Positions 1 through 42,227 of a stretch of DNA of 64,000 nucleotides are shown here, piece after piece. The stretch's first letter is position 1, and every line of letters starts with the position of its first letter. The translations under genes were made by a program, and so were the position numbers. The stretch is from the NCBI GenBank assembly GCA_963725745.1, contig CAVRZS010000004.1:538576-602575 (forward strand). Direction: 5' to 3'. This stretch comes from an uncultured Chloroflexia bacterium (GTDB lineage: Bacteria > Chloroflexota > Limnocylindria > Limnocylindrales > CSP1-4). The notes beneath the pieces were generated by a model. It did not search any database, had not been told where the DNA came from, and saw only the letters and a list, made by a program, of their open reading frames with translations.

Positions 1-2789
1 TCGGGCAGCATCGACGACCCAGAATCCGCCAGGATCGCGATCGCCTCGTCGATCGCGCGCAAGCCTTCCGCCGGTCGCCCGGCACCCGCGCAGGCGATCG
101 CCTGCACAAACAGCAGGAACGGCCAGAAGATCGGCGGCGACCGGAGCTCGCCGTAGAGGCCGATGCCGAACTGCACCTCGGCCATCCCTTCGTCCGCGCG
201 GCCGAGGGCGACGTGGGCTGCGCCGCGCAGGACGTTGCCGACCGCGGTCCAGATCCGGAACTCGTGCTCCTGGGCCAGGTCAACCAGGCTCGTCGCGAGC
301 TCGAGCGTGATCTCCGGCTCTCGTCGCCAGAACCGGAGCAGGCCGGCATGGAACCGGGCATAGGCGGTCGTGAACGGGTGGTCGAGCGCAGCGGCGAGGG
401 CGAGCGCGGCTTCGGCGCGTTCGGCAGCTCGGTCGGGTCTGCCCAGCAACCACAGGGTGAAGGCAGACGTGGTGAGGCAGGACACCCGCGGGTCGTTGCC
501 CACGCGGACCGACTGGGCTGTCGCGGGCCGCTCCGGAAACAGGGCGATCGCCTGCTCGAAGTGTTCGAGCCCGCCTCGCAGGTCGTCGAAGCTCATGAGG
601 GTCGTACCAACGAGCAGGTGGCCGTCGATCTGCATCGCGGCATCGCCCTCGGCCTCGCCCAAGTCGAGGATCACCCTGCCGAGCTCCGCGGACTTGTCGA
701 GCTGGGCGCGGAACAGGTAGAGGCTGGCCAGCCCACGCAGGACCGCGAACTGCTGCCGGACGTCGGCGCCCTGCTCGAACCGCTCGAGCGCGCCGGCAAA
801 GGCCGCCTCGACTTCCGGGGTGAACCCTTTCGTGGTCATCAGCGCCCTGGCCAGCGTGGTCCGGAGCCCGATCTCCTGGTTGATCCGTTCGGGCGACGGG
901 GGAACGGCTTCGACCACGGCCAGCATGTCCGACGCGAGCCTGACCGTATCGAGGTACCAGCCGTGGGCATCGTCGAGCGCGAGGAGGGTCTTCGCCAGCC
1001 CGTCCAGGCGCCCGAGGTCGCGCGCCTCCACCCAGTACGTCCAGGCGATGCGCAGGTTCCCGACGTCGGCGTGGAGCGCCTCCAGGGCAGCCTCACGCCC
1101 GGCGCCCGTCAGCTGGCCGCGCAGGCGACGCGCCAGGTCCGCGTAGTACGTGGCATGAACCTCGCGAGTCCGGGACGCGAGGTCGGGGTGCTGGTCGAGC
1201 CGGTCGGCGGCGAACTCGTGGATCGTCTGGAGCATCGCGACCCGCGGCTCCCGACCCGGCCGGTCCACCCGGCGCAGGAGGCTCTTCTCGACGAGACCGG
1301 CGAGCACGTCGAGCACGTCGACCGCCTCTCCATCGACCGCGCCGACCTCGCCGACCACGGCCTGGATCGCGTCCACCTCCGCGTCCGCGAACACCGCCAG
1401 CAGCTCGAACAAGCGCTGTTCAGCGGGCGAGAGCAGCTCGTAGCTCCAGTCCATCGCCGCCCGCAGCGTCTGCTGGCGCTCCGGGAGGTCGCGCGGTCCG
1501 CTGCGCAAGAGCCCCAGCCGGTCGTCGAGCCGATCGCGAAGCACCTCCGGCGAGAACAGACGGAGCCGGGCGGCCGCGAGCTCGATCGCCAGCGGCAGGC
1601 CATCGAGCCGGCGGCAGATCTCCGCGACCGCGGCCGCGTTGTGGTCGGTGAGCTCGAATTCCGGACGGACGACGCGGGCGCGGTCGACGAACAGCTGCAC
1701 TGCGGCAACGTCGCGGATGTCCGCGGCCGTTACCTGCCCGCGGGCGTCCGGCGGCAGCGCGAGCGGCGGCACGGGGAAGAGCTGTTCTGCCCGGACGTGG
1801 AGCGCCTCGCGACTCGTCGCGAGCACCGTCAGCCCGGGGCAGTCGCTGAGCAGCTGGGCCACCACGGCGGCCGATTGGGTGACCTGCTCGAGGTTGTCGA
1901 GCACGAGCAGCATGCGTTGTTCCCGCAGCCGGTCGACGAGCTCGTCCTGGAGCGGCCGATCGATGATCTCGCCCAGGCCAATCGATCGCGCGATCGCGAC
2001 CAGCACCGCGTTCGTGTCATGGGCGCTGGCCAGGTCCACGAACGAGGCGCCGTCGCGGAACCTCGGCGCCAGGTCCGATGCGACCCGGATCGCGAGTGTC
2101 GTCTTGCCGGTCCCGCCTGGCCCGATGAGCGTCAGCAGGCGGACGGAGCCATCCGCGAGGCGTTCGGTGATCTGGGCGATCTCGTTCTGACGACCGATCA
2201 GGGCCGCGACGCGCGAGGGCAGGTCTGCCCCGGGCTGACGAGCGGTGACCAGCGGCGGGAACTCCGACGGGAGGTCCGGGTGGACGAGCTGGTAGAGGTG
2301 CTCGGGCCGGCCGAGGTCCCGGAGGTGGTGCTCCCCCAGGTCGCGGAGCCCGGCCCCGCCCGGCAGCCGCTCGGTCGCCAGCGCACCCGCCGACGCGGAC
2401 AGCAGTACCTGGCCGCCGTGCCCCGCCGCCATGATGCGGGCGGCGCGGTTGACGGTGGTGCCGAAGTAGTCGCCGTCACGCCGCTCGGCCTGGCCGCAGT
2501 GAATGCCCATGCGGACCCTGAGCGGGCCGGTCTCGCCCCACGACTCGGCGATCAGCCCGCGCTGGGCCTCGAGGCTCGCCGTCGCCGCATCGATCGCCCC
2601 GGCGAACACGGCCATCATCCCGTCGCCGGTGGTCTTGACCACGGTGCCGCGGGCTGCCTCGATCGCGTCACGCAGGATCGCGTCGTGTCGGCCCAGCGCG
2701 GCCTTCATCGCGTCCGGGAACTGCTCCCAGAGCCGCGTGCTGCCCTCGAGGTCGGTGAACAGGAACGTGATGGTTCCAGTCGACGGCAT
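1..2789 (-). CDS. Class III adenylate/guanylate cyclase domain fused to an AAA/NB-ARC-type (STAND) ATPase; the C-terminal part runs off the left edge
   Basis: Absent from the ORF track because it has no stop inside the window. Reverse-strand translation from ATG 2789 (GTG 2795 also possible) reads MPSTGTITFLFTDLEGSTRLWEQFPDAMKAALGRHDAILRDAIEAARGTVVKTTGDGMMAVF...RVRMGIHCGQAERRDGDYFGTTVNRAARIMAAGHGGQVLLS (cyclase homology domain). It continues with LLTLIGPGGTGKTTLA (Walker A) and MLLVLDNLEQV (Walker B-like). All listed minus ORFs from 839 to 2479 are in another frame, consistent with this frame staying open to position 1. Confidence 0.85.
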   Translation of the reverse strand, partial: MPSTGTITFLFTDLEGSTRLWEQFPDAMKAALGRHDAILRDAIEAARGTVVKTTGDGMMAVFAGAIDAATASLEAQRGLIAESWGETGPLRVRMGIHCGQAERRDGDYFGTTVNRAARIMAAGHGGQVLLSASAGALATERLPGGAGLRDLGEHHLRDLGRPEHLYQLVHPDLPSEFPPLVTARQPGADLPSRVAALIGRQNEIAQITERLADGSVRLLTLIGPGGTGKTTLAIRVASDLAPRFRDGASFVDLASAHDTNAVLVAIARSIGLGEIIDRPLQDELVDRLREQRMLLVLDNLEQVTQSAAVVAQLLSDCPGLTVLATSREALHVRAEQLFPVPPLALPPDARGQVTAADIRDVAAVQLFVDRARVVRPEFELTDHNAAAVAEICRRLDGLPLAIELAAARLRLFSPEVLRDRLDDRLGLLRSGPRDLPERQQTLRAAMDWSYELLSPAEQRLFELLAVFADAEVDAIQAVVGEVGAVDGEAVDVLDVLAGLVEKSLLRRVDRPGREPRVAMLQTIHEFAADRLDQHPDLASRTREVHATYYADLARRLRGQLTGAGREAALEALHADVGNLRIAWTYWVEARDLGRLDGLAKTLLALDDAHGWYLDTVRLASDMLAVVEAVPPSPERINQEIGLRTTLARALMTTKGFTPEVEAAFAGALERFEQGADVRQQFAVLRGLASLYLFRAQLDKSAELGRVILDLGEAEGDAAMQIDGHLLVGTTLMSFDDLRGGLEHFEQAIALFPERPATAQSVRVGNDPRVSCLTTSAFTLWLLGRPDRAAERAEAALALAAALDHPFTTAYARFHAGLLRFWRREPEITLELATSLVDLAQEHEFRIWTAVGNVLRGAAHVALGRADEGMAEVQFGIGLYGELRSPPIFWPFLLFVQAIACAGAGRPAEGLRAIDEAIAILADSGSSMLP

Positions 2790-2876
2790 GTCCACGAGCC
2801 CATCATCGGGCTTTCGGGCCACGCGGGGTGTCACGGCGGCGACACAACGCTCGGGCCGGCGACCGTGTGTCGCCAG

Positions 2877-3284
2877 CTACGGGAGCACGATGAACCGACC
2901 GCCATCGAGGGGGCGCACGACCTCGAAGTGCCGACGATCGAGCGTGACGATTGTCTTCGTTCGATACCTGGCCGCGAGGACGACGATCGAGGCGTCGGCC
3001 ACGCCGATCGACTGGTCCCCATAGCGCTCCACCAGGCGGCGCGCGGAGTCCAGATCCGTCGCATCGAACGATGGCAGCTCCCACGCGCCGCCGGCCAGCT
3101 CGGTCAAAGCGGCCAACTCGGCGTCCATGCCGTGTCGCGATGCGGCGAGGTAGTCCGTCTCTGCGACGACGTACGGCGAGACCACCAGCGGCTCGGTGGA
3201 GCCCTCCAGCACCTCGGCGACGGCCGCGTGGTCCGGCTCTCCGCTGTCGAAGTAGGCGAGGAGGGCGCTCGTATCGACGATCAC
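2877..3284 (-). CDS. vapC: PIN-domain toxin (VapC family)
   Basis: GTG at 3284 gives VIVDTSALLAYFDSGEPDHAAVAEVLE...LVVSPYVVAETDYLAASRHG...VVLAARYRTKTIVTLDRRHF, which is the PIN acidic-residue pattern. The start overlaps the upstream antitoxin stop as GTGA (3281-3284). Confidence 0.85.
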   Translation of the reverse strand: MIVDTSALLAYFDSGEPDHAAVAEVLEGSTEPLVVSPYVVAETDYLAASRHGMDAELAALTELAGGAWELPSFDATDLDSARRLVERYGDQSIGVADASIVVLAARYRTKTIVTLDRRHFEVVRPLDGGRFIVLP

Positions 3285-3499
3285 CTGTCGCCGAACCCGC
3301 GCAGGTGTTTGTCCGCGTCCCGAGCGATCGGCGCCTTGCCCGCGTACAGCCCGCCCTTCGGGCGCGGCCGGGCGTCGCCCATGACCGCCTGGCGGATCGA
3401 CTCGCGGATGACCTCGGCCTCCGAGACGCCTCGCTGGAGGGCAGCACGGCGAAGCGCGGTCTTGAGTTCGAGGGGCAGATAGACCGTCGTCTTGTCCAT
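3281..3499 (-). CDS. vapB: Ribbon-helix-helix antitoxin (VapB/CopG type)
   Basis: 72-aa track ORF MDKTTVYLPLELKTALRRAALQRGVSEAEVIRESIRQAV shows a beta-strand/helix/helix RHH pattern. It lies directly upstream of, and is translationally coupled to, the PIN gene. Confidence 0.8.
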   Translation of the reverse strand: MDKTTVYLPLELKTALRRAALQRGVSEAEVIRESIRQAVMGDARPRPKGGLYAGKAPIARDADKHLRGFGDR

Positions 3500-3582
3500 G
3501 GATATATGGTACCACCGGTGGTACCAGCGACGACACGTTCACCGTCCCCGGCGGTCTGGCCTGCCCGACTACGATCGGAGCC

Positions 3583-4155
3583 GTGCTCATCCGCCACGAG
3601 ACCCTCCGCCGTATCGCGTCGGGCGAGGTCGACACCGTGTTCCGCCGCCAGCGCCGGCCAACCGTCAAGGCCGGCGGCACGCTGCGGACGATGATCGGGA
3701 TGCTCGCGATCGACACCGTCGAGCGCATCGAGCCCGGGGACGTCACCGAGTCCGACGCGCGGCGCGCGGGCATGGCCCGGGACGAGATCCTGGCGATGCT
3801 GGCCGCCAAGACCGAGGGCGAGTGCTACCGCGTCCGGCTCCACGTCGCGGGCGACGACCCACGGATCGCGCTCCGTGAGGACGCGGCGCTCGACGAGGCG
3901 ACGGTGACGGCGCTCCGCGCGCGGCTGGACCGGCTGGACGCCGCGAGCTCCTGGGGCCCATGGACGCGGCCGACGCTGCGGTTGATCGCCGAGCGGCCCT
4001 TCGTCCGCGCGCCAGACCTGGCCGCCTCGATGGGTCGCGACACCCCGTCGTTCAAGGATGACGTCCGCAAACTCAAGGCCCTGGGCCTGACGATCAGCCA
4101 CAACCCGGGCTACGAGCTATCTCCACGCGGCCGGGCGCTTCTCGACCGGCTCTGA
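3583..4155 (+). CDS. ASCH (PUA-like) domain protein with a C-terminal winged-helix-like tail
   Basis: 190-aa track ORF (GTG start). The N-terminus LIRHETLRRIASGEVDTVFRRQRRPTVKAGGTL...YRVRLH resembles ASCH beta-barrel proteins. The C-terminus RPFVRAPDLAASMGRDTPSFKDDVRKLKALGLTISHNPGYELSPRGRALL resembles a wHTH. Confidence 0.6.
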   Translation: MLIRHETLRRIASGEVDTVFRRQRRPTVKAGGTLRTMIGMLAIDTVERIEPGDVTESDARRAGMARDEILAMLAAKTEGECYRVRLHVAGDDPRIALREDAALDEATVTALRARLDRLDAASSWGPWTRPTLRLIAERPFVRAPDLAASMGRDTPSFKDDVRKLKALGLTISHNPGYELSPRGRALLDRL

Positions 4156-4305
4156 CCCACGGGCGGAGTGGTCTGGGGTCGCTGCGCATCCGCCGAGACG
4201 AACTCCTACGCGATGGTGTTCCGTCGCGGTCGGTCGATCTCGCCTCACGAAGGGGGGTACGAAGCGACTACCACGGCGGGCTCCGAGCCTTGCTACGTTG
4301 CGGAC

Positions 4306-5121
4306 ATGGGCGAACCGTGGAGGGTCAAGTACGACGGAGTCTGTGCCCGACGCGAGACCCCGCCGCATAAAGGCAGTCCGGCGGTCTGGGATCGTGCCAC
4401 TCGCTCAATCCGATGCGTCACGTGCCCTCTTGAGGCATCGCCTCCGCCGCCCGCGGCGGTGATCGAAACTGGCACGGCTGGTCGCTCGGCCCGCGTTAGG
4501 TACGACCACCCCGCGGCGAAGCGTGACACCGCAAACGCCGACCGATGGGGAACGGGCATCGTCGCGAAGGTGATCCGCGCGGTGTCCGACGAGCCGCAGT
4601 CGACGCGTGCATGGGCGATCGGCGCGGCGGGCGAAGAGAAGCTGGCGGCCGACCTCGATGACGTCCCCGGCATCCGCATGCTTCACGATCGGCGTATCCC
4701 CGGGACTCGCCGTAACATCGACCACATCGTCATCGGCCCGGCCGGCATCTTCGTCGTTGATGCGAAGAACCACAAAGGGCGCCTCGAGATCCGCGATCGA
4801 GGCGGACTGCTCCGCTCTGACCTGCGCCTCACCGTGGGTGGCCGCGACATCTCGAGTGCTGCGGACGGTGTGTTGTCGCAAGCCGACGTCGTGGCGACCG
4901 TGCTCGAGCGGGCAGGTATCGAGTTAGCACCTTCGGTGACGCCCGTCTTGTGCTTCCTCAGGGTCGAGTGGCCGCTGCTCCGGCCGCCGTCGGTGTTCCG
5001 TGGCGTCAGGCTCGAGAACGACCGATCGGTCAGGCGACTTGTGACCACGCGCTCGACACTTGCCGAGGCGCAGGCCGACCATTTGCTATCGACGCTTGCG
5101 GCGGGTCTTCCTCCGAGATAG
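4306..5121 (+). CDS. NERD (nuclease-related domain) protein with a small Cys-containing N-terminal knuckle
   Basis: In-frame ATG 4306 within track ORF 4168..5121. The segment AWAIGAAGEEKLAADLDDVPGIRMLHDRRIPGTRRNIDHIVIGPAGIFVVDAKNHKGRLEI matches the NERD core as I recall it (HDR...NIDH...V.DAK). The N-terminus carries C...CVTC. Confidence 0.75.
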   Translation: MGEPWRVKYDGVCARRETPPHKGSPAVWDRATRSIRCVTCPLEASPPPPAAVIETGTAGRSARVRYDHPAAKRDTANADRWGTGIVAKVIRAVSDEPQSTRAWAIGAAGEEKLAADLDDVPGIRMLHDRRIPGTRRNIDHIVIGPAGIFVVDAKNHKGRLEIRDRGGLLRSDLRLTVGGRDISSAADGVLSQADVVATVLERAGIELAPSVTPVLCFLRVEWPLLRPPSVFRGVRLENDRSVRRLVTTRSTLAEAQADHLLSTLAAGLPPR

Positions 5122-5178
5122 GTCCCAGCTGGGGTTCATACGTCGCCCGCCAGGAGGCAGCCCCGAGGGCGGCGTACG

Positions 5179-6543
5179 ATGCGCCTGGCTACATCATCGG
5201 GAGCTACGACTCGCGGCATGCGCCTCTTCGAGCTCTATCGCTATGCGAAGCCGAGTCCGGGGCCGGAGATCGAGTTCATCGATGGCTACCGGAATATCTT
5301 CAACGTCACGCGTTGGCCCAATTGGCCTGCCCTCGCGGGTGCTGGGCGCGTGCAGCTCGACCACGGCATCGACTCCGTCAAGAAGGTCATGGCGGTCGAC
5401 GGCGAGCGACGTCCCGCGATCCTGATCGCCTCGAAGCCACATCGGGCCGGTTCTGACTGGACGCCCTGGCATGACGAGCTCGACGCCGAGCGCGGGCACG
5501 TGCGCTATTTCGGAGACAACAAGGCCGACCTCGGGTTCGATCCGCTCGGACCACCCGGCAACCGCTCGGTCGTCGAGCAGTTTGGCCTCCATACATCGGC
5601 GAGTCGATCAGACCGACTCCGCGCGGCGCCGCTTCTGTTTTTCGAGAGCCTGGTGCATGAGGGACGAGCGAAAGGATTCTGGCGATTTCTCGGGGTGGGG
5701 CTCATCGAGCGTGCGGAGCTGGTCGCTCAGGTTGACCGAAAGGGACGGCCGTTCGTCAACTACGCCTTCGACTGCCTCTTGGTCGATCTGACCGCGGAGG
5801 GCCTCGGAATGGCATGGGAGTGGATCGCCGCCAGGCGCGACCCCACGAAGTCCGCTGACGAGTGCCTGCAGTTCGCGCCGGTGGCGTGGCGGCGCTGGGT
5901 CGACGGCGGCGCGGCCGTGAGAGACCGGATCCGCCAGCAATTGACCCGGGCGTCGACACTCACTCCAGCCGATCAACGCCCAGATGCTGGAACCCCGGCC
6001 GAAGACGCTCTTCGACATGTGATCGCGCACTACAAGCGACTGGGTGCATATCAGGGTGTCGGCGAACATCGCTTCGAGGGACTTGCGTCCGAGATCACGG
6101 GAAGCGTGTTGGGTGAAAGCGGCCAGTACCGGCCGGGTTGGATCACGAAGCGAGCCGGCGATGGCGGGATCGACTTCGTGAGTCGGCTGGATCTCGGGTC
6201 AGGTGTGGGAGCCCTGAAGCTGGTCGTCCTCGGCCAGGCGAAGTGCATTGCCGGGGTCGCGCCAGTGACGAGCGGACTCGATCTCGCGAGAACTGTTGCC
6301 AGGCTGGACCGCGGATGGGTCGGGTCGTTCGTGACGACGGGCTACTACAGCGAGCAGGCCCAACGCGAAGTCGTCAGCGACCGATTCCCGTTGCTCATGC
6401 TGAATGGTCGACATGTCGGCGAGACCGTGGTCCGAGAGTCAGCCTTGCGAGGCATGACCGTGCCCGAATACATTGCTGGGGTCGACGCTGAATACGACGC
6501 ACGGGTGTCCAACAGGCTGCCCGCGGAAATTCTTGGGGACTGA
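5179..6543 (+). CDS. Two-domain nuclease: N-terminal PUA/SRA-like reader domain plus C-terminal Mrr-type PD-(D/E)xK restriction endonuclease core; candidate type IV (modification-dependent) enzyme
   Basis: Track ORF of 454 aa (an alternative ATG at 5218 gives MRLFELYRY). The C-terminus HRFEGLASEITGSVLG...GWITKRAGDGGIDFVSRLDLGSGVGALKLVVLGQAKC fits the Mrr catalytic pattern (FE...DGGID...Q.K). The N-terminus PAILIASKPHRAGSDWTPWHDELDAERGHVRYFGDNK...APLLFFES...GFWRFLGVGLIERAELV resembles the SRA/YDG pattern (ivvS..Y.D..d.g..l.YtG.G). Confidence 0.6.
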   Translation: MRLATSSGATTRGMRLFELYRYAKPSPGPEIEFIDGYRNIFNVTRWPNWPALAGAGRVQLDHGIDSVKKVMAVDGERRPAILIASKPHRAGSDWTPWHDELDAERGHVRYFGDNKADLGFDPLGPPGNRSVVEQFGLHTSASRSDRLRAAPLLFFESLVHEGRAKGFWRFLGVGLIERAELVAQVDRKGRPFVNYAFDCLLVDLTAEGLGMAWEWIAARRDPTKSADECLQFAPVAWRRWVDGGAAVRDRIRQQLTRASTLTPADQRPDAGTPAEDALRHVIAHYKRLGAYQGVGEHRFEGLASEITGSVLGESGQYRPGWITKRAGDGGIDFVSRLDLGSGVGALKLVVLGQAKCIAGVAPVTSGLDLARTVARLDRGWVGSFVTTGYYSEQAQREVVSDRFPLLMLNGRHVGETVVRESALRGMTVPEYIAGVDAEYDARVSNRLPAEILGD

Positions 6544-6572
6544 CGCCGAGGCGTGTAACGGGACGCACCGGC

Positions 6573-8282
<1,710 letters not shown>

Positions 8283-10165: not shown

Positions 10166-10753
10166 ATGACGCCCGCCACTGCCCAGCGACTCACCGCCGA
10201 CGAGCGCCGCGACGCCGTGATCGCCGCCGCCACCGTCGAGTTCGCCCGGGGCGGCTACGCAGGGACCTCGACGCAGGCGATCGCCCGGCGAGTCGGCGTC
10301 TCGCAGCCGTACCTGTTCCAGCTGTACGCGACGAAGGAGGACCTGTTCCTCGCCACGATCCGGGCGTGCTTCGAGGCGACGCGCTCGGCGTTCCAGGAAA
10401 GTGGGGGAGCGGCACGCGACGCCGGCGCCGACTCTAGGGGGATCCTCGCGGCGATGGCCCACACCTACATGGCCCTGCTCGCGGATCGCGACCGGCTGCG
10501 GCTCCAGCTCCAGTCCTACGCGGCCTGCGGCGACCCGGCGATCCAGGCCGTCGTCCACGAGGAGTGGACACGCCTGTACCAGACGGTTTCGTCGATCTCG
10601 GGTGCCGACGAGGTGCGGATCCACCAATGGTTCGCCGAAGGGATGCTGCTCAACGTGGCGGCCTCGATCGGCAACCTGGATGAGGCCATCCGGCTCAAGC
10701 TCGCCCTGTTCGCAGAGGACGACATCGAGGGAGGTGACGCCCACCCGCGATGA
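10166..10753 (+). CDS. TetR/AcrR family transcriptional regulator
   Basis: ATG 10166 gives MTPATAQRLTADERRDAVIAAATVEFARGGYAGTSTQAIARRVGVSQPYLFQLYATKEDLF, a typical TetR N-terminal HTH. Confidence 0.85.
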   Translation: MTPATAQRLTADERRDAVIAAATVEFARGGYAGTSTQAIARRVGVSQPYLFQLYATKEDLFLATIRACFEATRSAFQESGGAARDAGADSRGILAAMAHTYMALLADRDRLRLQLQSYAACGDPAIQAVVHEEWTRLYQTVSSISGADEVRIHQWFAEGMLLNVAASIGNLDEAIRLKLALFAEDDIEGGDAHPR

Positions 10754-10778
10754 CCCGGACTTGTTTTTGCGCTGCGAA

Positions 10779-10798
10779 CTTAGCGACTAGTCACTAAG
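10779..10798. promoter_or_regulatory. Candidate TetR operator, a 20-bp near-perfect palindrome upstream of the MFS gene
   Basis: cttagcgactagtcactaag matches its own reverse complement at 18 of 20 positions. It ends 19 nt before ATG 10818. Confidence 0.45.
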
Positions 10799-10817
10799 GA
10801 AGGGAAGAACCCCAGCC

Positions 10818-12254
10818 ATGCCCCGACTCCGTTCTTCGACCGGATGGACGTTCGCGATCAGCGCGATCGGCCTGTTCATGGTCGCCCTCGACAACCTCGT
10901 CGTTACCACCGCGCTGCCCGTGATCCGCAACGATTTGGGCGCCTCGCTCCAGCAGCTCGAATGGATGGTCAACGCCTACACGCTGACGTTCGCGGTGCTG
11001 CTGCTCACCGGCGCCGCGCTCGGGGACCGGTTCGGCCGTCGCCGGATGTTCGTCATCGGGCTCATCGTCTTCACCGCCGGCTCGCTCGGGGCCGCCCTGG
11101 CGCCCAACAGCGACGTGCTTATCCTCGCCCGCGCCATCCAGGGCGTCGGCGGCGCGATCGTCACGCCGCTCAGCCTGACGATCCTGTCCGCCGCCGTGCC
11201 CCCGGAGCGACGCGCCCTCGCGCTCGGCGCGTGGGGTGGGATCGCCGGGCTCGCGATCGCGATCGGCCCGCTCGTGGGCGGCGCCATCGCGCAGGGGCTG
11301 AGCTGGCACTGGATATTCCTGCTCAACGTCCCGGTCGGCATCATCGCCACCGTCTTCGCCTACCTGTGGCTCGACGAGACCTACGGGCCCGAGGGCGGGC
11401 TCGACATCCCGGGTCTCGGCCTCGCGAGTGCGGGCCTGCTGGGCGTGGTGTGGGGCGTGATCAACGGCAACGAGCGTGGCTGGACTGACCCCGCGATCCT
11501 CGCGGCCATCGGCGCCGGCGCCCTGCTCCTGGGCGGCTTCGTGGCCTGGGAGGCGCGCGCCAAGAACCCGATGCTGCCGATGGACATGTTCCGCAGCCGC
11601 GCGTTCGCGGCCGCCAACACCTCGTCGCTGCTGATGTACTTCGGGATGTTCGGCTCGATCTTCCTGCTGTCGCAGTTCTTCCAGGTCGTCCAGGGCTACA
11701 ACCCGTTCGAGTCGGGTCTCCGCGTGCTGCCGTGGACCGCGATGCCGGCCGTAGTGGCGCCGCTCGCGGGCTACTTCAGCGGCCGCATCGGCGCCCGCCC
11801 GATCCTGGTCGTGGGGCTCGCCCTGATGTCGGTCGGGCTCGGCTGGATCGCCGCCATCGCCACGCCGACCGCCCCGTACATCGCGTTCGTGCCCCCGTTC
11901 ATCGTGAGCGGCATCGGCATGGGCATGTTCTTCGCGCCGATCGCGAACCTCGTCCTGTCCGCCGTGCGGCCGGAGGAGGAGGGCAAGGCGTCGGGCGCGA
12001 GCAACGCGATCCGTGAGGTCGGCGGCGTCTTCGGGGTCGCCGTGCTCGCTTCGGTGTTCTCGGCCAACGGCTCCTATGCCAGCCCGCAGGCGTTCGTCGA
12101 CGGGATGGTCCCGGCCGTCTGGCTGGGGGCTGCGGTCGTCGGTGTGGCGGCGGTCGTGGCCCTGGCCATCCCGCGCTGGGTGGCGGCCGGTCAGCCGCGC
12201 ATCGCCGACGCCGCGGCGGCCACGGGACGGCTCGCCGGCAGCGAGGCCGGCTGA
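10818..12254 (+). CDS. MFS drug/H+ antiporter, DHA2 (EmrB/QacA-like, 14-TMS type)
   Basis: 478-aa track ORF. GLFMVALDNLVVTTALPVIRNDLGASLQQLEWMVNAYTLTFAVLLLTGAALGDRFGRRRMF contains the MFS motif A-like GDRFGRRR. The protein is hydrophobic throughout. Confidence 0.9.
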   Translation: MPRLRSSTGWTFAISAIGLFMVALDNLVVTTALPVIRNDLGASLQQLEWMVNAYTLTFAVLLLTGAALGDRFGRRRMFVIGLIVFTAGSLGAALAPNSDVLILARAIQGVGGAIVTPLSLTILSAAVPPERRALALGAWGGIAGLAIAIGPLVGGAIAQGLSWHWIFLLNVPVGIIATVFAYLWLDETYGPEGGLDIPGLGLASAGLLGVVWGVINGNERGWTDPAILAAIGAGALLLGGFVAWEARAKNPMLPMDMFRSRAFAAANTSSLLMYFGMFGSIFLLSQFFQVVQGYNPFESGLRVLPWTAMPAVVAPLAGYFSGRIGARPILVVGLALMSVGLGWIAAIATPTAPYIAFVPPFIVSGIGMGMFFAPIANLVLSAVRPEEEGKASGASNAIREVGGVFGVAVLASVFSANGSYASPQAFVDGMVPAVWLGAAVVGVAAVVALAIPRWVAAGQPRIADAAAATGRLAGSEAG

Positions 12255-12529
12255 ACCACAGCCCATACCGGGCGGCCGGCGGCGCGAACGCCCGCCGGCC
12301 GCTACGACCTTCGACCCATGACACATCGTCGGCTGGCGACCGGTAGCCAGCGTGCGGCAGAAGGGTGTGCCCCCCGCGCATGCCAGACGATCGAGCCCGT
12401 GCACCGCCGACAGGAAGTCGGGCGCGATTCGACCGCTTGGGCGGCCTCCAACGCAGCTCGCCCCCGGCTAACGGCCGTGAGCCGGCGATCTGTCTGGAAC
12501 TGAAGGGCCGCGAGAATTCAGCCACCCGC

Positions 12530-12901
12530 TCAGGCGCCCTGGAGGACCGAGAGGATGTTGCCGGCGGGATCCTTGAACCACGCGATCGACGGGCCGTTGT
12601 CCCGTGCGATCCCGCGCTCGTCCTGGTCCAGGCCCTCGTAGCGCTCGAACCGAACGCCCTTGCCGGCCAGCTCGTCCACGGCGGCGTCGATGTCGTCGAC
12701 CTCGAAGTTGAGCACGGTGAACGTGGCCGGCTCGTGGTTCGGCTTGGGGTAGATGAACACCCGCTGGCCGCCCGCGAGGTCGAGCATCAGCGAGCCGTTG
12801 TCCTCGTGGACGGTGACGCCCAGGGTGTCGGCATAGAAGGCCTTCTCCGCGTCGACGTCGCCCGCCGAGAAGCCGGAGAACGCTGGTCGTGTCCCAATCA
12901 T
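12530..12901 (-). CDS. VOC/glyoxalase-family protein
   Basis: 123-aa track [42 protein letters not shown]...[21 protein letters not shown]...[14 protein letters not shown] is a typical paired beta-alpha-beta-beta-beta VOC pattern. Confidence 0.8.
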
Positions 12902-12986
12902 CGGTGCCTCCTTGTCCTTGCTTCAGCAAAGACGGTACGCCGGGGGAGTGCTCATCGCGTTCACGAACAGCGGCGTCACCAGCCTC

Positions 12987-13015
12987 TTGCATCCTGGCAG
13001 AGTATACGTATACTC
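12987..13015 (+). promoter_or_regulatory. Near-consensus sigma70-type promoter (-35 TTGCAT, 16-nt spacer, -10 TATACT) overlapped by a perfect 16-bp palindrome GAGTATACGTATACTC
   Basis: -35 at 12987..12992, -10 at 13009..13014, palindrome at 13000..13015. This is an AT-rich island in GC-rich DNA, sitting between the divergent VOC gene and the EXLDI operon. Confidence 0.5.
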
Positions 13016-13051
13016 ATGCGTATCCAACTCGCATGGGACGAAGGTTACGAT

Positions 13052-13576
13052 GTGGCCGTGCCGAACAAGACCATCTACGTGTCCGACGGGGACCTCAAGC
13101 TCTACCAGCGCGCCCAGGAGATCGCAGGCGGCAACCTGTCCGCCGCGATCGCGGCCGCGCTCAAGCGCTACGTCAACGTCCAGGAAGGCCTCGCTGAAGG
13201 CTTCGACGACGTGGTCGTCCGGGTTGGGATCGGCTCCGGGCGCAAGGTCCGGTTCACCGGCCTCCTCGTGGGCGACTGGGTCGACGCCAGCACCAAGCGC
13301 GCGGATCACTACCGCGTCTGGCGAGGTCGCACCGGCAAGTTCGTCGTCCACAACGAGCGCAGCGCCGAGTACTGGTCGGTCGATGCCGAGGGCAAGCCGG
13401 CCGGCTGGCGGGGCTGGATGGGCGTCGGGGACGTCCGCTACGGCGGCACGCCCAAGGAATCGACGCTCGATGTCTTCGAGTCGCTCGATGCCCTCCGCGA
13501 GAAGGTCCCGCCCGACCTGTTCGAAATGGTCGCCCGCTCCTCGCGCCTCCCGACCGTGGAGGAGCTCGACATCTAG
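13052..13576 (+). CDS. EXLDI-family protein (N-terminal RHH-like segment, C-terminal ...VEELDI)
   Basis: In-frame GTG 13052 (GTG 13058 and ATG 13016 are also in frame) within track ORF 12365..13576. It reads VAVPNKTIYVSDGDLKLYQRAQEIAGGNLSAAIAAALKRYV... and ends PTVEELDI*. A family named for a C-terminal ExLDI motif and found next to ABC exporter genes exists in TIGRFAMs, as I recall. ABC ATPase and permease genes follow directly. Confidence 0.7.
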   Translation: MAVPNKTIYVSDGDLKLYQRAQEIAGGNLSAAIAAALKRYVNVQEGLAEGFDDVVVRVGIGSGRKVRFTGLLVGDWVDASTKRADHYRVWRGRTGKFVVHNERSAEYWSVDAEGKPAGWRGWMGVGDVRYGGTPKESTLDVFESLDALREKVPPDLFEMVARSSRLPTVEELDI

Positions 13577-13615
13577 CGACGGGCGCCGCCCGGCGACGAT
13601 CTCGGGAGGCGCACG

Positions 13616-14591
13616 ATGACGGCGCACGCGATGACGACGACCTCGGCGATCGAGGTCCGCGGCCTGCGGAAGTCGTACGGCAAGCAGGTCGTGCTCGACG
13701 GAATCGACCTCGATGTCCCGGAAGGCACCGTGTTCGCGCTGCTGGGCCCGAACGGCGCCGGCAAGACGACGGTCATCCACATCCTCTCGACCCTGATCGC
13801 CGCGGACGCGGGCGAGGTCCGCATCGCGGGCTTCGACGTCGCGCGCGAGCCCGACGCCATCCGGGGCGTGATCGGCCTCACGGGCCAGGTGTCCGCTGTC
13901 GACGGCCAGTTCACAGGCGAAGAGAACCTGCGCCTCATGGCCGACCTCGAGCATCTCGGCAAGGAACGGGGACAGCGCCGCGTCGCGGAGCTGCTGGAAC
14001 GGTTCGAGCTCGTCGCGGATGCCGGCAAGCCCGCCGCGACCTACTCGGGCGGCATGCGCCGGCGCCTGGACCTCGCCATGACGCTGGTCGGCGACCCGCG
14101 GATCATCTTCCTCGACGAGCCCACGACCGGCCTCGATCCCCGCAGCCGGCGGGTGATGTGGGACATCGTGCGCGAGCTGGTCGCGGGTGGCGTCACGATC
14201 CTGCTCACCACCCAGTATCTCGAGGAGGCCGATCGGCTCGCGAGCCGGATCGCCCTGCTCGACGCGGGCCGGATCGTCGCGCAGGGCACCCCGGCCGAGC
14301 TCAAGCGGCTGGTGCCGGGCGGCAGCGTGCGGCTCGAGTTCTCCGATGCGGCGATGCTCGACCGGGCGGCCGGGGCGCTGCACGGCGCGATCCCGCGACG
14401 ACCAGAACCTGGCCCTCCAGGTGCCCAACGACGGCGGCGTGCACTCGCTTCGGGCCCTGCTCGACCGGCTGGACGCCGAGGCCATCGAGGTCGAGGGGCT
14501 GGCCATCCGGTCCGCGGATCTCGACGACGTGTTCCTGTCCCTCACCGGCCGCGAGAACGGCCAACTCGACGACAAGAAGGTGCCGGCATGA
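13616..14591 (+). pseudogene. ABC transporter ATP-binding protein (DrrA/ABC-2 type), interrupted by a +1 frameshift near 14388-14400
   Basis: GPNGAGKTT (Walker A), YSGGMRRRL (signature) and IIFLDEPTTGLD (Walker B) are in the frame of 13616. The conserved C-terminus RDDQNLALQVPNDGG...LDDVFLSLTG is in the frame of track ORF 14187..14591. That ORF's TGA overlaps the permease ATG (ATGA at 14588). Confidence 0.8.
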
Positions 14592-22379: not shown

Positions 22380-22454
22380 TGGCTGGCGCGCCAGGATTCG
22401 AACCTGGAACCCCCTGATCCAGAGTCAGGTGCTCTACCGTTGAGCCACGCGCCA
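22380..22454 (-). tRNA. tRNA-Gln (anticodon CUG), CCA encoded
   Basis: The reverse complement folds by hand as TGGCGCG-TG-GCTC-AACGGTA-GAGC-A-CCTGA-CTCTGGA-TCAGG-GGGTT-CCAGG-TTCGAAT-CCTGG-CGCGCCA-G-CCA (75 nt). All four stems are perfectly paired, the T-loop is TTCGAAT, and the anticodon loop is CU-CUG-GA. Confidence 0.9.
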
Positions 22455-42016: not shown

Positions 42017-42065
42017 CCCGGCATCGTACTCACGGGGCGGGTGTAAACTCGGCCGACAATCGAAG

Positions 42066-42160
42066 ATCCGCCTCCGGGGAGCGCGCGAGCGCTGAGAGTG
42101 TGGTGCAGACCACAGACCCGCGGAACCTGATCCGGTTCGTACCGGTGTAGGAAGCAGGCC
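42066..42160 (+). promoter_or_regulatory. TPP (THI-box) riboswitch
   Basis: GGGGAGC..GCGCUGAGA..(hairpin GUGGUGCAGACCAC)..ACCC..GCGGAACCUGAUCCGGUUCGUACCGGUGUAGGAAGC contains the hallmark CUGAGA, ACCC and ACCUGAUC.GG.U...ACC.G.G.AGGnA elements in the right order. It is followed by an 11-bp GC hairpin (42174..42199) plus TTCGTGCTT, and by GGAGG 12 nt before the ykoE ATG. Confidence 0.85.
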
Positions 42161-42227
42161 CGCAGCCACAGCACGCCGTCCCCGGCATCGGGGGCGGCGT
42201 TCGTGCTTGACGGAGGTCCAGGGATCG

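Follow-up and report, generated by a model that had tools for sequence, protein, structure and literature searches.

MspJI and AspBHI are modification-dependent restriction endonucleases that form homotetramers and are active alone in vitro, without partners (PMC3479186, PMC4231741). MspJI cleaves by means of a D-X20-QAK catalytic motif (PMC3479186), and the roles of the residues forming its 5-methylcytosine (5mC) pocket have been described (PMC4231741). Here we compare with these enzymes a locus from an uncultured Chloroflexia bacterium (contig CAVRZS010000004.1), analysed within a stretch of 64,000 nucleotides that we call the window. At positions 2877-6543 of the window, glnS and a STAND cyclase gene flank five genes: a vapBC pair, a gene for an ASCH domain fused to a winged helix-turn-helix (wHTH), a NERD gene and an MspJI-like gene. 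A first-pass annotation, made from the sequence alone, had taken them for a defence-type islet in which the last three might act as one modification-sensing immunity module. The last gene encodes a full-length MspJI-family modification-dependent (Type IIM/IV) restriction endonuclease, with activity predicted from its sequence; none of the other components has a clear defence mechanism. The interval as a whole is very probably a variable stretch in which four genetic units lie side by side, each independent of the others.

Open reading frames (ORFs) and domain searches agree with the five genes as first drawn, with refined starts; those of NERD (4306) and of the MspJI-like gene (5218) were fixed by homologue alignments. 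The features of the interval are:

5218..6543, plus strand: MspJI-like gene, 441 aa, SRA-like N-terminal domain and C-terminal nuclease (PADLOC mREase_II)
5138..5217, plus strand: candidate promoter region with a TACGAT hexamer, ahead of the MspJI-like gene (homologue alignments)
4306..5121, plus strand: NERD gene, 271 aa, with an N-terminal zinc ribbon (Pfam NERD, 53 bits)
3583..4155, plus strand: ASCH-wHTH gene, 190 aa, ASCH-like over about residues 1-95, then a helical linker and a C-terminal wHTH
3507..3526, strand not applicable: candidate VapB operator palindrome, 20 bp, arms 100% complementary (repeat search)
3281..3499, minus strand: vapB, ribbon-helix-helix (RHH) antitoxin, 72 aa (Pfam RHH_1, 26.1 bits)
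2877..3284, minus strand: vapC, PIN-domain toxin, 135 aa (Pfam PIN, 69.5 bits)

The MspJI-like gene

The MspJI-like protein matches the PADLOC model mREase_II (Type II methyl-directed restriction enzymes) over positions 5-432 of 434 (E=4e-128). Among the five genes of the interval, this single-gene model is the only PADLOC match apart from a weak one to the wHTH region of the ASCH-wHTH protein, and no multi-gene defence system was recovered. Pfam assigns RE_AspBHI_N with 73 bits and Mrr_cat with 19.7 bits, the latter slightly below its 21-bit cut-off. A search of the PDB found MspJI (4f0p/4r28) at E=2.2e-78, with query residues 8-439 aligned to chain residues 30-454, and AspBHI (4oc8) at E=1.2e-13. 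The two domains of the “SRA-like/Mrr nuclease” in the first-pass annotation thus hold, but the protein is not an unnamed fusion, since it belongs to the named MspJI/AspBHI family.

Functional residues, with roles taken from PMC3479186 and PMC4231741, were mapped through a pairwise alignment with MspJI (41% identity over 418 columns). All six residues of the MspJI 5mC pocket (W101, D103, Y114, F115, D117 and K119) are identical in the window protein (W84, D86, Y97, F98, D100 and K102), and the specificity residue K173 is kept as K152. Catalytic D334/Q355/K357 is kept as D319-X20-Q340-A341-K342, positions that are invariant in 45 homologues. The tetramer residues R376/E398/D402 correspond to R362/E384/D388, a conservation at the level of sequence from which the oligomeric state is predicted. 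Across the 45 homologues the mean column identity is 76% with many invariant positions, which indicates purifying selection.

By analogy with MspJI, we infer both the enzymatic activity and the sequence specificity of the protein, and propose a scheme in which (i) the enzyme would form a homotetramer; (ii) the SRA-like domain would flip 5-methyl- or 5-hydroxymethylcytosine (5hmC) into the pocket formed by W84/D86/Y97/F98/D100/K102; (iii) K152 would read a purine three bases downstream (mCNNR-like); and (iv) cleavage of both strands, a fixed distance away, would follow at the D319-X20-Q340-A-K342 site. The outcome would be restriction of incoming cytosine-modified DNA without a cognate methylase and without a partner protein.

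The gene probably has its own promoter. A TACGAT hexamer, a candidate -10 element, lies approximately 35-45 nt upstream of its start and recurs in the relatives L005, L006, L008, L025 and L031 (L numbers denote homologous loci). Homologue alignments show that it is kept whether NERD, ASCH or the cyclase gene lies upstream, which suggests that it serves the MspJI-like gene itself.

Composition sets two of the genes apart. Against a window GC content of 71% and a mean G+C content at third codon positions (GC3) of 0.86 (standard deviation 0.07), GC3 is 0.77 for NERD and 0.74 for the MspJI-like gene, compared with 0.93 for ASCH-wHTH, 0.88 for vapBC, 0.92 for glnS and 0.90 for the cyclase gene. The less G/C-biased third positions noted earlier at 4.3-6.5 kb are therefore real for NERD, where the dip begins, and for the MspJI-like gene, but the ASCH-wHTH gene lies outside the dip. 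Horizontal acquisition, which had been suggested on this basis, is weakened. Several relatives have the MspJI-like gene in synteny, and a reduced GC content of the gene recurs throughout (0.62-0.66 versus 0.68-0.73 for the locus in L005, L007-L009, L011, L013, L019, L030, L034 and L166), a deficit of 5-9 points in the Chloroflexia relatives examined. We accordingly reject a recent transfer into the window genome: the shared site and shared deficit indicate that the gene has long been low in GC3, which is thus no mark of a recent arrival.

The cyclase-glnS interval in related genomes

The closest loci come from metagenome-assembled genomes (MAGs) labelled uncultured Chloroflexia or Candidatus Limnocylindrales, several of which share the chromosomal neighbourhood of the window. 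The interval between the cyclase gene and glnS differs among these genomes, so that a variable islet is a fair description. The gene orders are:

Window: cyclase, vapCB, ASCH, NERD, MspJI, glnS
L166: cyclase, glyoxalase, ASCH, NERD, MspJI, glnS
L006: cyclase, NERD, MspJI, MGMT (without ASCH, vapBC or glnS)
L167: cyclase, NERD, MspJI (fragmented), 1148-aa metalloprotease, glnS
L005: cyclase, MspJI, 1176-aa metalloprotease, glnS
L025: ASCH, MspJI, TetR-MFS, glnS
L031: ASCH, cyclase, MspJI, glnS
L003: vapCB, 4.8 kb, ASCH, cupin, PLD-helicase-DUF3427, glnS

All pairwise presence/absence combinations occur at this site, as expected of independent genes in a variable region. The absence of metabolic context, which had been part of the case for a defence islet, is true of the window genome but not of its relatives, in which the interval also holds cupin, glyoxalase, TetR-MFS and large metalloprotease genes. 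The slot itself clearly turns over. In L003 the gene adjoining glnS (11059-14085, minus strand) encodes a PLD, DEAD/ResIII helicase and DUF3427 protein that matches PADLOC mREase_IV at E=5e-123, and a fragment of such a gene occupies the same slot in L002 (approximately 10619-11665, minus strand; mREase_IV, E=3e-37). Two Type IV enzymes that are unrelated to each other, MspJI-like and PLD-helicase-DUF3427, therefore alternate in the slot by glnS, along with non-defence cargo.

A metalloprotease-like ORF lies between the MspJI-like gene and glnS in L005 (9342-12869, minus strand) and L167 (7345-10791, minus strand), the two copies being 92% identical. This ORF of 1148-1176 aa has no Pfam or PADLOC match and shows only a sub-threshold M6 metalloprotease/snapalysin-type HELGH region; it was considered as defence cargo and set aside as an M6-like metalloprotease.

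Co-occurrence was surveyed from the side of each plus-strand gene. From the MspJI side, taking one genome per species, 172 relatives were found; the 79 loci kept, in 68 of which the upstream flank exceeds 1.5 kb, were screened with hidden Markov models built from the three plus-strand families. The NERD subfamily is present in two of the 79 (adjacent in L006, 4.4 kb upstream in L011) and the ASCH gene in one (L031); two Streptomyces loci gave weak NERD matches that are unrelated. From the NERD side, neither an MspJI-like nor an ASCH gene was found in any of 80 metagenome loci, including the 46 informative ones with at least 1 kb downstream, and clustering of the flanking ORFs of the 80 loci yielded no neighbour family in more than four. 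From the ASCH side, the relatives L002, L003 and L004, with ASCH genes 83-95% identical to that of the window, lack both nucleases. In the non-syntenic locus L011, the DNA between NERD and the MspJI-like gene encodes an HNH_2 endonuclease (3583-4710, minus strand; PADLOC HNH, E=3e-22).

Several observations weigh against four independent units. In the window, L166, L006 and L167, four related genomes, NERD immediately precedes the MspJI-like gene and is read in the same direction, and in the non-syntenic L011 it lies 4.4 kb upstream; this exceeds what chance would give for an arbitrary pair. A scan of positions 2700-6800 for consensus (sigma-70) promoters and terminators found none, including between the three plus-strand genes, which leaves room for co-transcription. 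Many related MAG contigs also carry frameshifts that blur the presence or absence of intact genes; these are probably sequencing errors, because the assemblies are long-read MAGs and glnS is hit too.

One could read the adjacency as the sign of a lineage-specific two-gene unit, with NERD as a second nuclease, processing factor or regulator of the MspJI-like enzyme, in a cassette since broken in some genomes. Order, strand and adjacency are the same in the four genomes, GC3 is reduced in both genes, and the 2.25-kb block of NERD and the MspJI-like gene aligns with L006 as one piece. However, the four adjacent cases are syntenic and amount to about one evolutionary event, and in L005, L025 and L031 the same site holds an MspJI-like gene but no NERD; an MspJI-like gene without NERD is also found in at least 60 other loci. 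None of the 46 informative NERD loci holds an MspJI-like gene, and MspJI and AspBHI need no partner in vitro. The divergence of the two genes is also uncoupled: identity to the window copy is 88-92% for the MspJI-like protein and 92-95% for ASCH, but 64-73% for NERD, which evolves much faster and has lost a zinc ligand in the window. We consider such a unit improbable. In a related version, the zinc-ribbon NERD protein would be a functional accessory of the MspJI-like enzyme in this lineage, giving a two-gene variant of a single-gene Type IV system; this would explain both the adjacency in the four syntenic genomes and the co-localisation in L011, and we regard it as distinctly unlikely.

A reading of NERD and the MspJI-like gene as functionless relics on the way to becoming pseudogenes, in a region that is mere debris in a recombination hotspot, is likewise very doubtful. 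The loss of a nearly invariant zinc-ribbon cysteine from NERD, the fragmented MspJI-like or NERD frames of several relatives and the low GC3 would fit decay, but both window ORFs are intact and of full length, the MspJI-like protein keeps every catalytic, pocket and tetramer residue, the conservation of its homologues indicates purifying selection, and the frameshifts of the relatives, which also affect glnS, probably stem from sequencing. A three-gene modification-sensing immunity module, in which ASCH-wHTH would act as modified-base reader or regulator beside NERD and the SRA-Mrr nuclease, can practically be dismissed: the window and L166 do have the three genes in a row on the plus strand, and the ASCH fold, which is supported, shares the PUA-like superfamily with SRA-like folds, but ASCH-wHTH occurs without either nuclease in L002, L003 and L004, NERD and MspJI-like without ASCH in L006 and L167, and ASCH and MspJI-like without NERD in L025 and L031, the ASCH gene has native composition and is found in just one of the 79 MspJI-like loci, its distant homologues lie beside esterase, TauD and cupin genes, and PADLOC has no ASCH-wHTH model and returns a weak CARF3 match.

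Four independent units thus remain the reading that we favour. The module envisaged in the first-pass annotation is not supported, as the MspJI family is stand-alone and the three plus-strand genes do not co-occur outside one narrow lineage (two and one of 79 loci from the MspJI side, none of 46 from the NERD side); that annotation had itself named a lack of co-occurrence as telling against the module, and this lack is what the surveys found.

Neighbouring genes and flanks

The vapBC pair is a self-contained type II toxin-antitoxin pair. As noted from the outset, the genes are GTGA-coupled: the GTG start of vapC and the TGA stop of vapB share positions 3281-3284 on the minus strand, and Pfam confirms PIN and RHH_1. 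The acidic residues D4, E42, D97 and D116 of VapC are present in the translation, so that a PIN toxin with its acidic residues, a DNA-binding antitoxin directly upstream and translational coupling are all in place. The divergently oriented vapB and ASCH-wHTH genes are separated by 83 nt, and this gap contains a perfect palindrome of 20 bp (TGGTACCACC/GGTGGTACCA), its arms directly adjoining (0 nt apart), 8 nt ahead of the vapB start. The palindrome probably serves the RHH protein VapB as operator, through which VapB probably autoregulates the pair. PADLOC has no match for vapBC. In L003, a vapC 87% identical to that of the window lies 4.8 kb away from the ASCH gene.

For the ASCH-wHTH protein, Pfam (E<=0.1), NCBIfam and PDB profile searches gave no usable match, so that only fold searches were informative; even among ten distant homologues, one reaches E=0.2 with Pfam ASCH (PF04266). 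The AlphaFold2 (AF2) model has a predicted local distance difference test score (pLDDT) of 91.9. In Foldseek searches, its N-terminal 95 or so residues match E. coli YqfB (E=1.9e-4, template modelling score 0.70 on the target, root-mean-square deviation 2.5 Å, 94 columns), Zymomonas ZmASCH (E=2e-3) and, weakly, EF3133 (DUF984; E=0.038), and its C-terminal half matches the winged helices of MarR, MexR and CggR. The modelled fold thus supports the ASCH domain and winged-helix tail proposed earlier. A CARF assignment was rejected, because the weak PADLOC CARF3 match (E=0.001) covers mostly the linker and wHTH and the model has no CARF-like N-terminal fold. With its native GC3, ASCH-wHTH is a conserved gene of the lineage that lies outside the variable insert, and copies of 92-95% identity are found both in relatives that have the nucleases and in relatives that lack them. 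Homologues of 64-72% identity sit among esterase, TauD, cupin and luciferase-like genes, and an Esterase_PHB-like hydrolase is the next gene in two distant genomes. We propose that ASCH-wHTH acts as a single gene, inherited vertically, whose product would be a regulator or bind a ligand; it borders the variable slot and would have no link to defence. The family numbers 5672 homologues (more than 5600 clusters at 90% identity, 2017 at 50%). This very large family has no Pfam or NCBIfam model, a by-product of modest interest.

The NERD protein exceeds the 22.1-bit cut-off of Pfam NERD (PF08378) with its 53 bits, and D139 and D152-A-K154 are invariant in the family alignment. Its AF2 model (pLDDT 88) gave only weak PD-(D/E)xK matches in Foldseek (best E=8e-3), and PADLOC returned no match for the protein. 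Nitroreductase matches among PDB profiles were judged spurious, and MADS6 (NCBIfam; 18 bits versus a 460-bit cut-off) reflects generic NERD similarity. The cysteine knuckle seen in the first pass is a feature of the family, which has an N-terminal CxxC...CxxC zinc ribbon, but the window copy reads CxxR...CxxC. The change, C16R (codon CGC; window positions 4342-4353 are NERD codons 13-16), occurs in one of 46 sequences, that of the window, and an independent Logan assembly has the same base; it may reflect early decay or a site formed by three cysteines and a histidine. The gene would accordingly be described as a solitary, fast-evolving, zinc-ribbon nuclease-like gene, here minus one zinc ligand.

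The flanks of the interval are:

3..2792, minus strand: cyclase-STAND gene, class III nucleotide cyclase with STAND NTPase and TPR, running past the window start
6573..8282, minus strand: glnS, glutaminyl-tRNA synthetase (ORF and translation; the syntenic genes of relatives are tRNA-synt_1c)

In the cyclase protein, Pfam finds Guanylate_cyc (51.6 bits) and NB-ARC (39.9 bits), with AAA_16 (28.2 bits) and TPR_2 (24.2 bits) under the curated cut-offs, and PADLOC gives only weak PycC matches. On the other side, glnS and the MspJI-like gene converge, with 29 nt between them. An exact look-up of the GlnRS sequence returned no record, probably owing to the start codon chosen. Elsewhere in the window lie a thiamine pyrophosphate (TPP) riboswitch (42065-42171, plus strand; 61 bits, over the gathering score) and a tRNA-Gln(CTG) gene (22380-22454, minus strand).

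Comparison with known systems

The vapBC pair resembles VapBC type II toxin-antitoxin systems in its PIN toxin with four acidic residues, upstream RHH antitoxin, 4-nt GTGA overlap and promoter-region palindrome. There is no notable difference, except that the TIGR00028 score of the window VapC falls under the cut-off, which marks it as a divergent VapC. The ASCH-wHTH protein shares the N-terminal beta-barrel fold of YqfB, an N4-acetylcytidine amidohydrolase, and of ZmASCH, at approximately 15% identity and without a Pfam ASCH match. In contrast to other ASCH proteins, another residue seems to stand in place of the canonical lysine in the GxKTxExR-type motif (G14..D17-T18..F20-R21-R22 in the window family), and the domain is fused to a MarR-like wHTH, a fusion that makes a regulator more likely than an enzyme. 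The NERD protein has the PD-(D/E)xK-like core with invariant D...D-x-K of NERD proteins such as the nuclease-helicase Nhi and the kinase MADS6. It differs from these in being small and stand-alone, with a four-cysteine N-terminal zinc ribbon in its family, without a helicase or kinase domain, without a PADLOC match and without a conserved neighbour.

The PLD-helicase-DUF3427 Type IV enzymes (mREase_IV) are likewise predicted modification-dependent nucleases and take the same slot by glnS in L003 and L002, but their architecture is unrelated to that of the MspJI-like protein and their gene is absent from the window. The significance of the locus lies mostly in annotation: its defence gene adds a member to a single-gene family that is already well known, and the genes beside it are ordinary.

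The defence gene can be assigned confidently to the MspJI family of restriction enzymes, with predicted dependence on 5mC/5hmC. The protein has the two-domain architecture, domain order and length of MspJI from Mycobacterium sp. JLS (4F0P/4F0Q/4R28; 441 versus 456 aa). It differs at the DNA-contact positions Q33->K, E65->D, W92->H and S90->K, the last of which contacts the base via its main chain in MspJI, so that the preference for flanking sequence may differ. The hosts differ as well, a Chloroflexia-type MAG lineage here and an actinobacterium for MspJI. Membership of the family predicts a host without mCNNR-type cytosine methylation that would restrict cytosine-modified phage or plasmid DNA. 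As in the other family members (AspBHI, LpnPI, FspEI, RlaI and SgrTI), the system consists of a single gene without a methylase.

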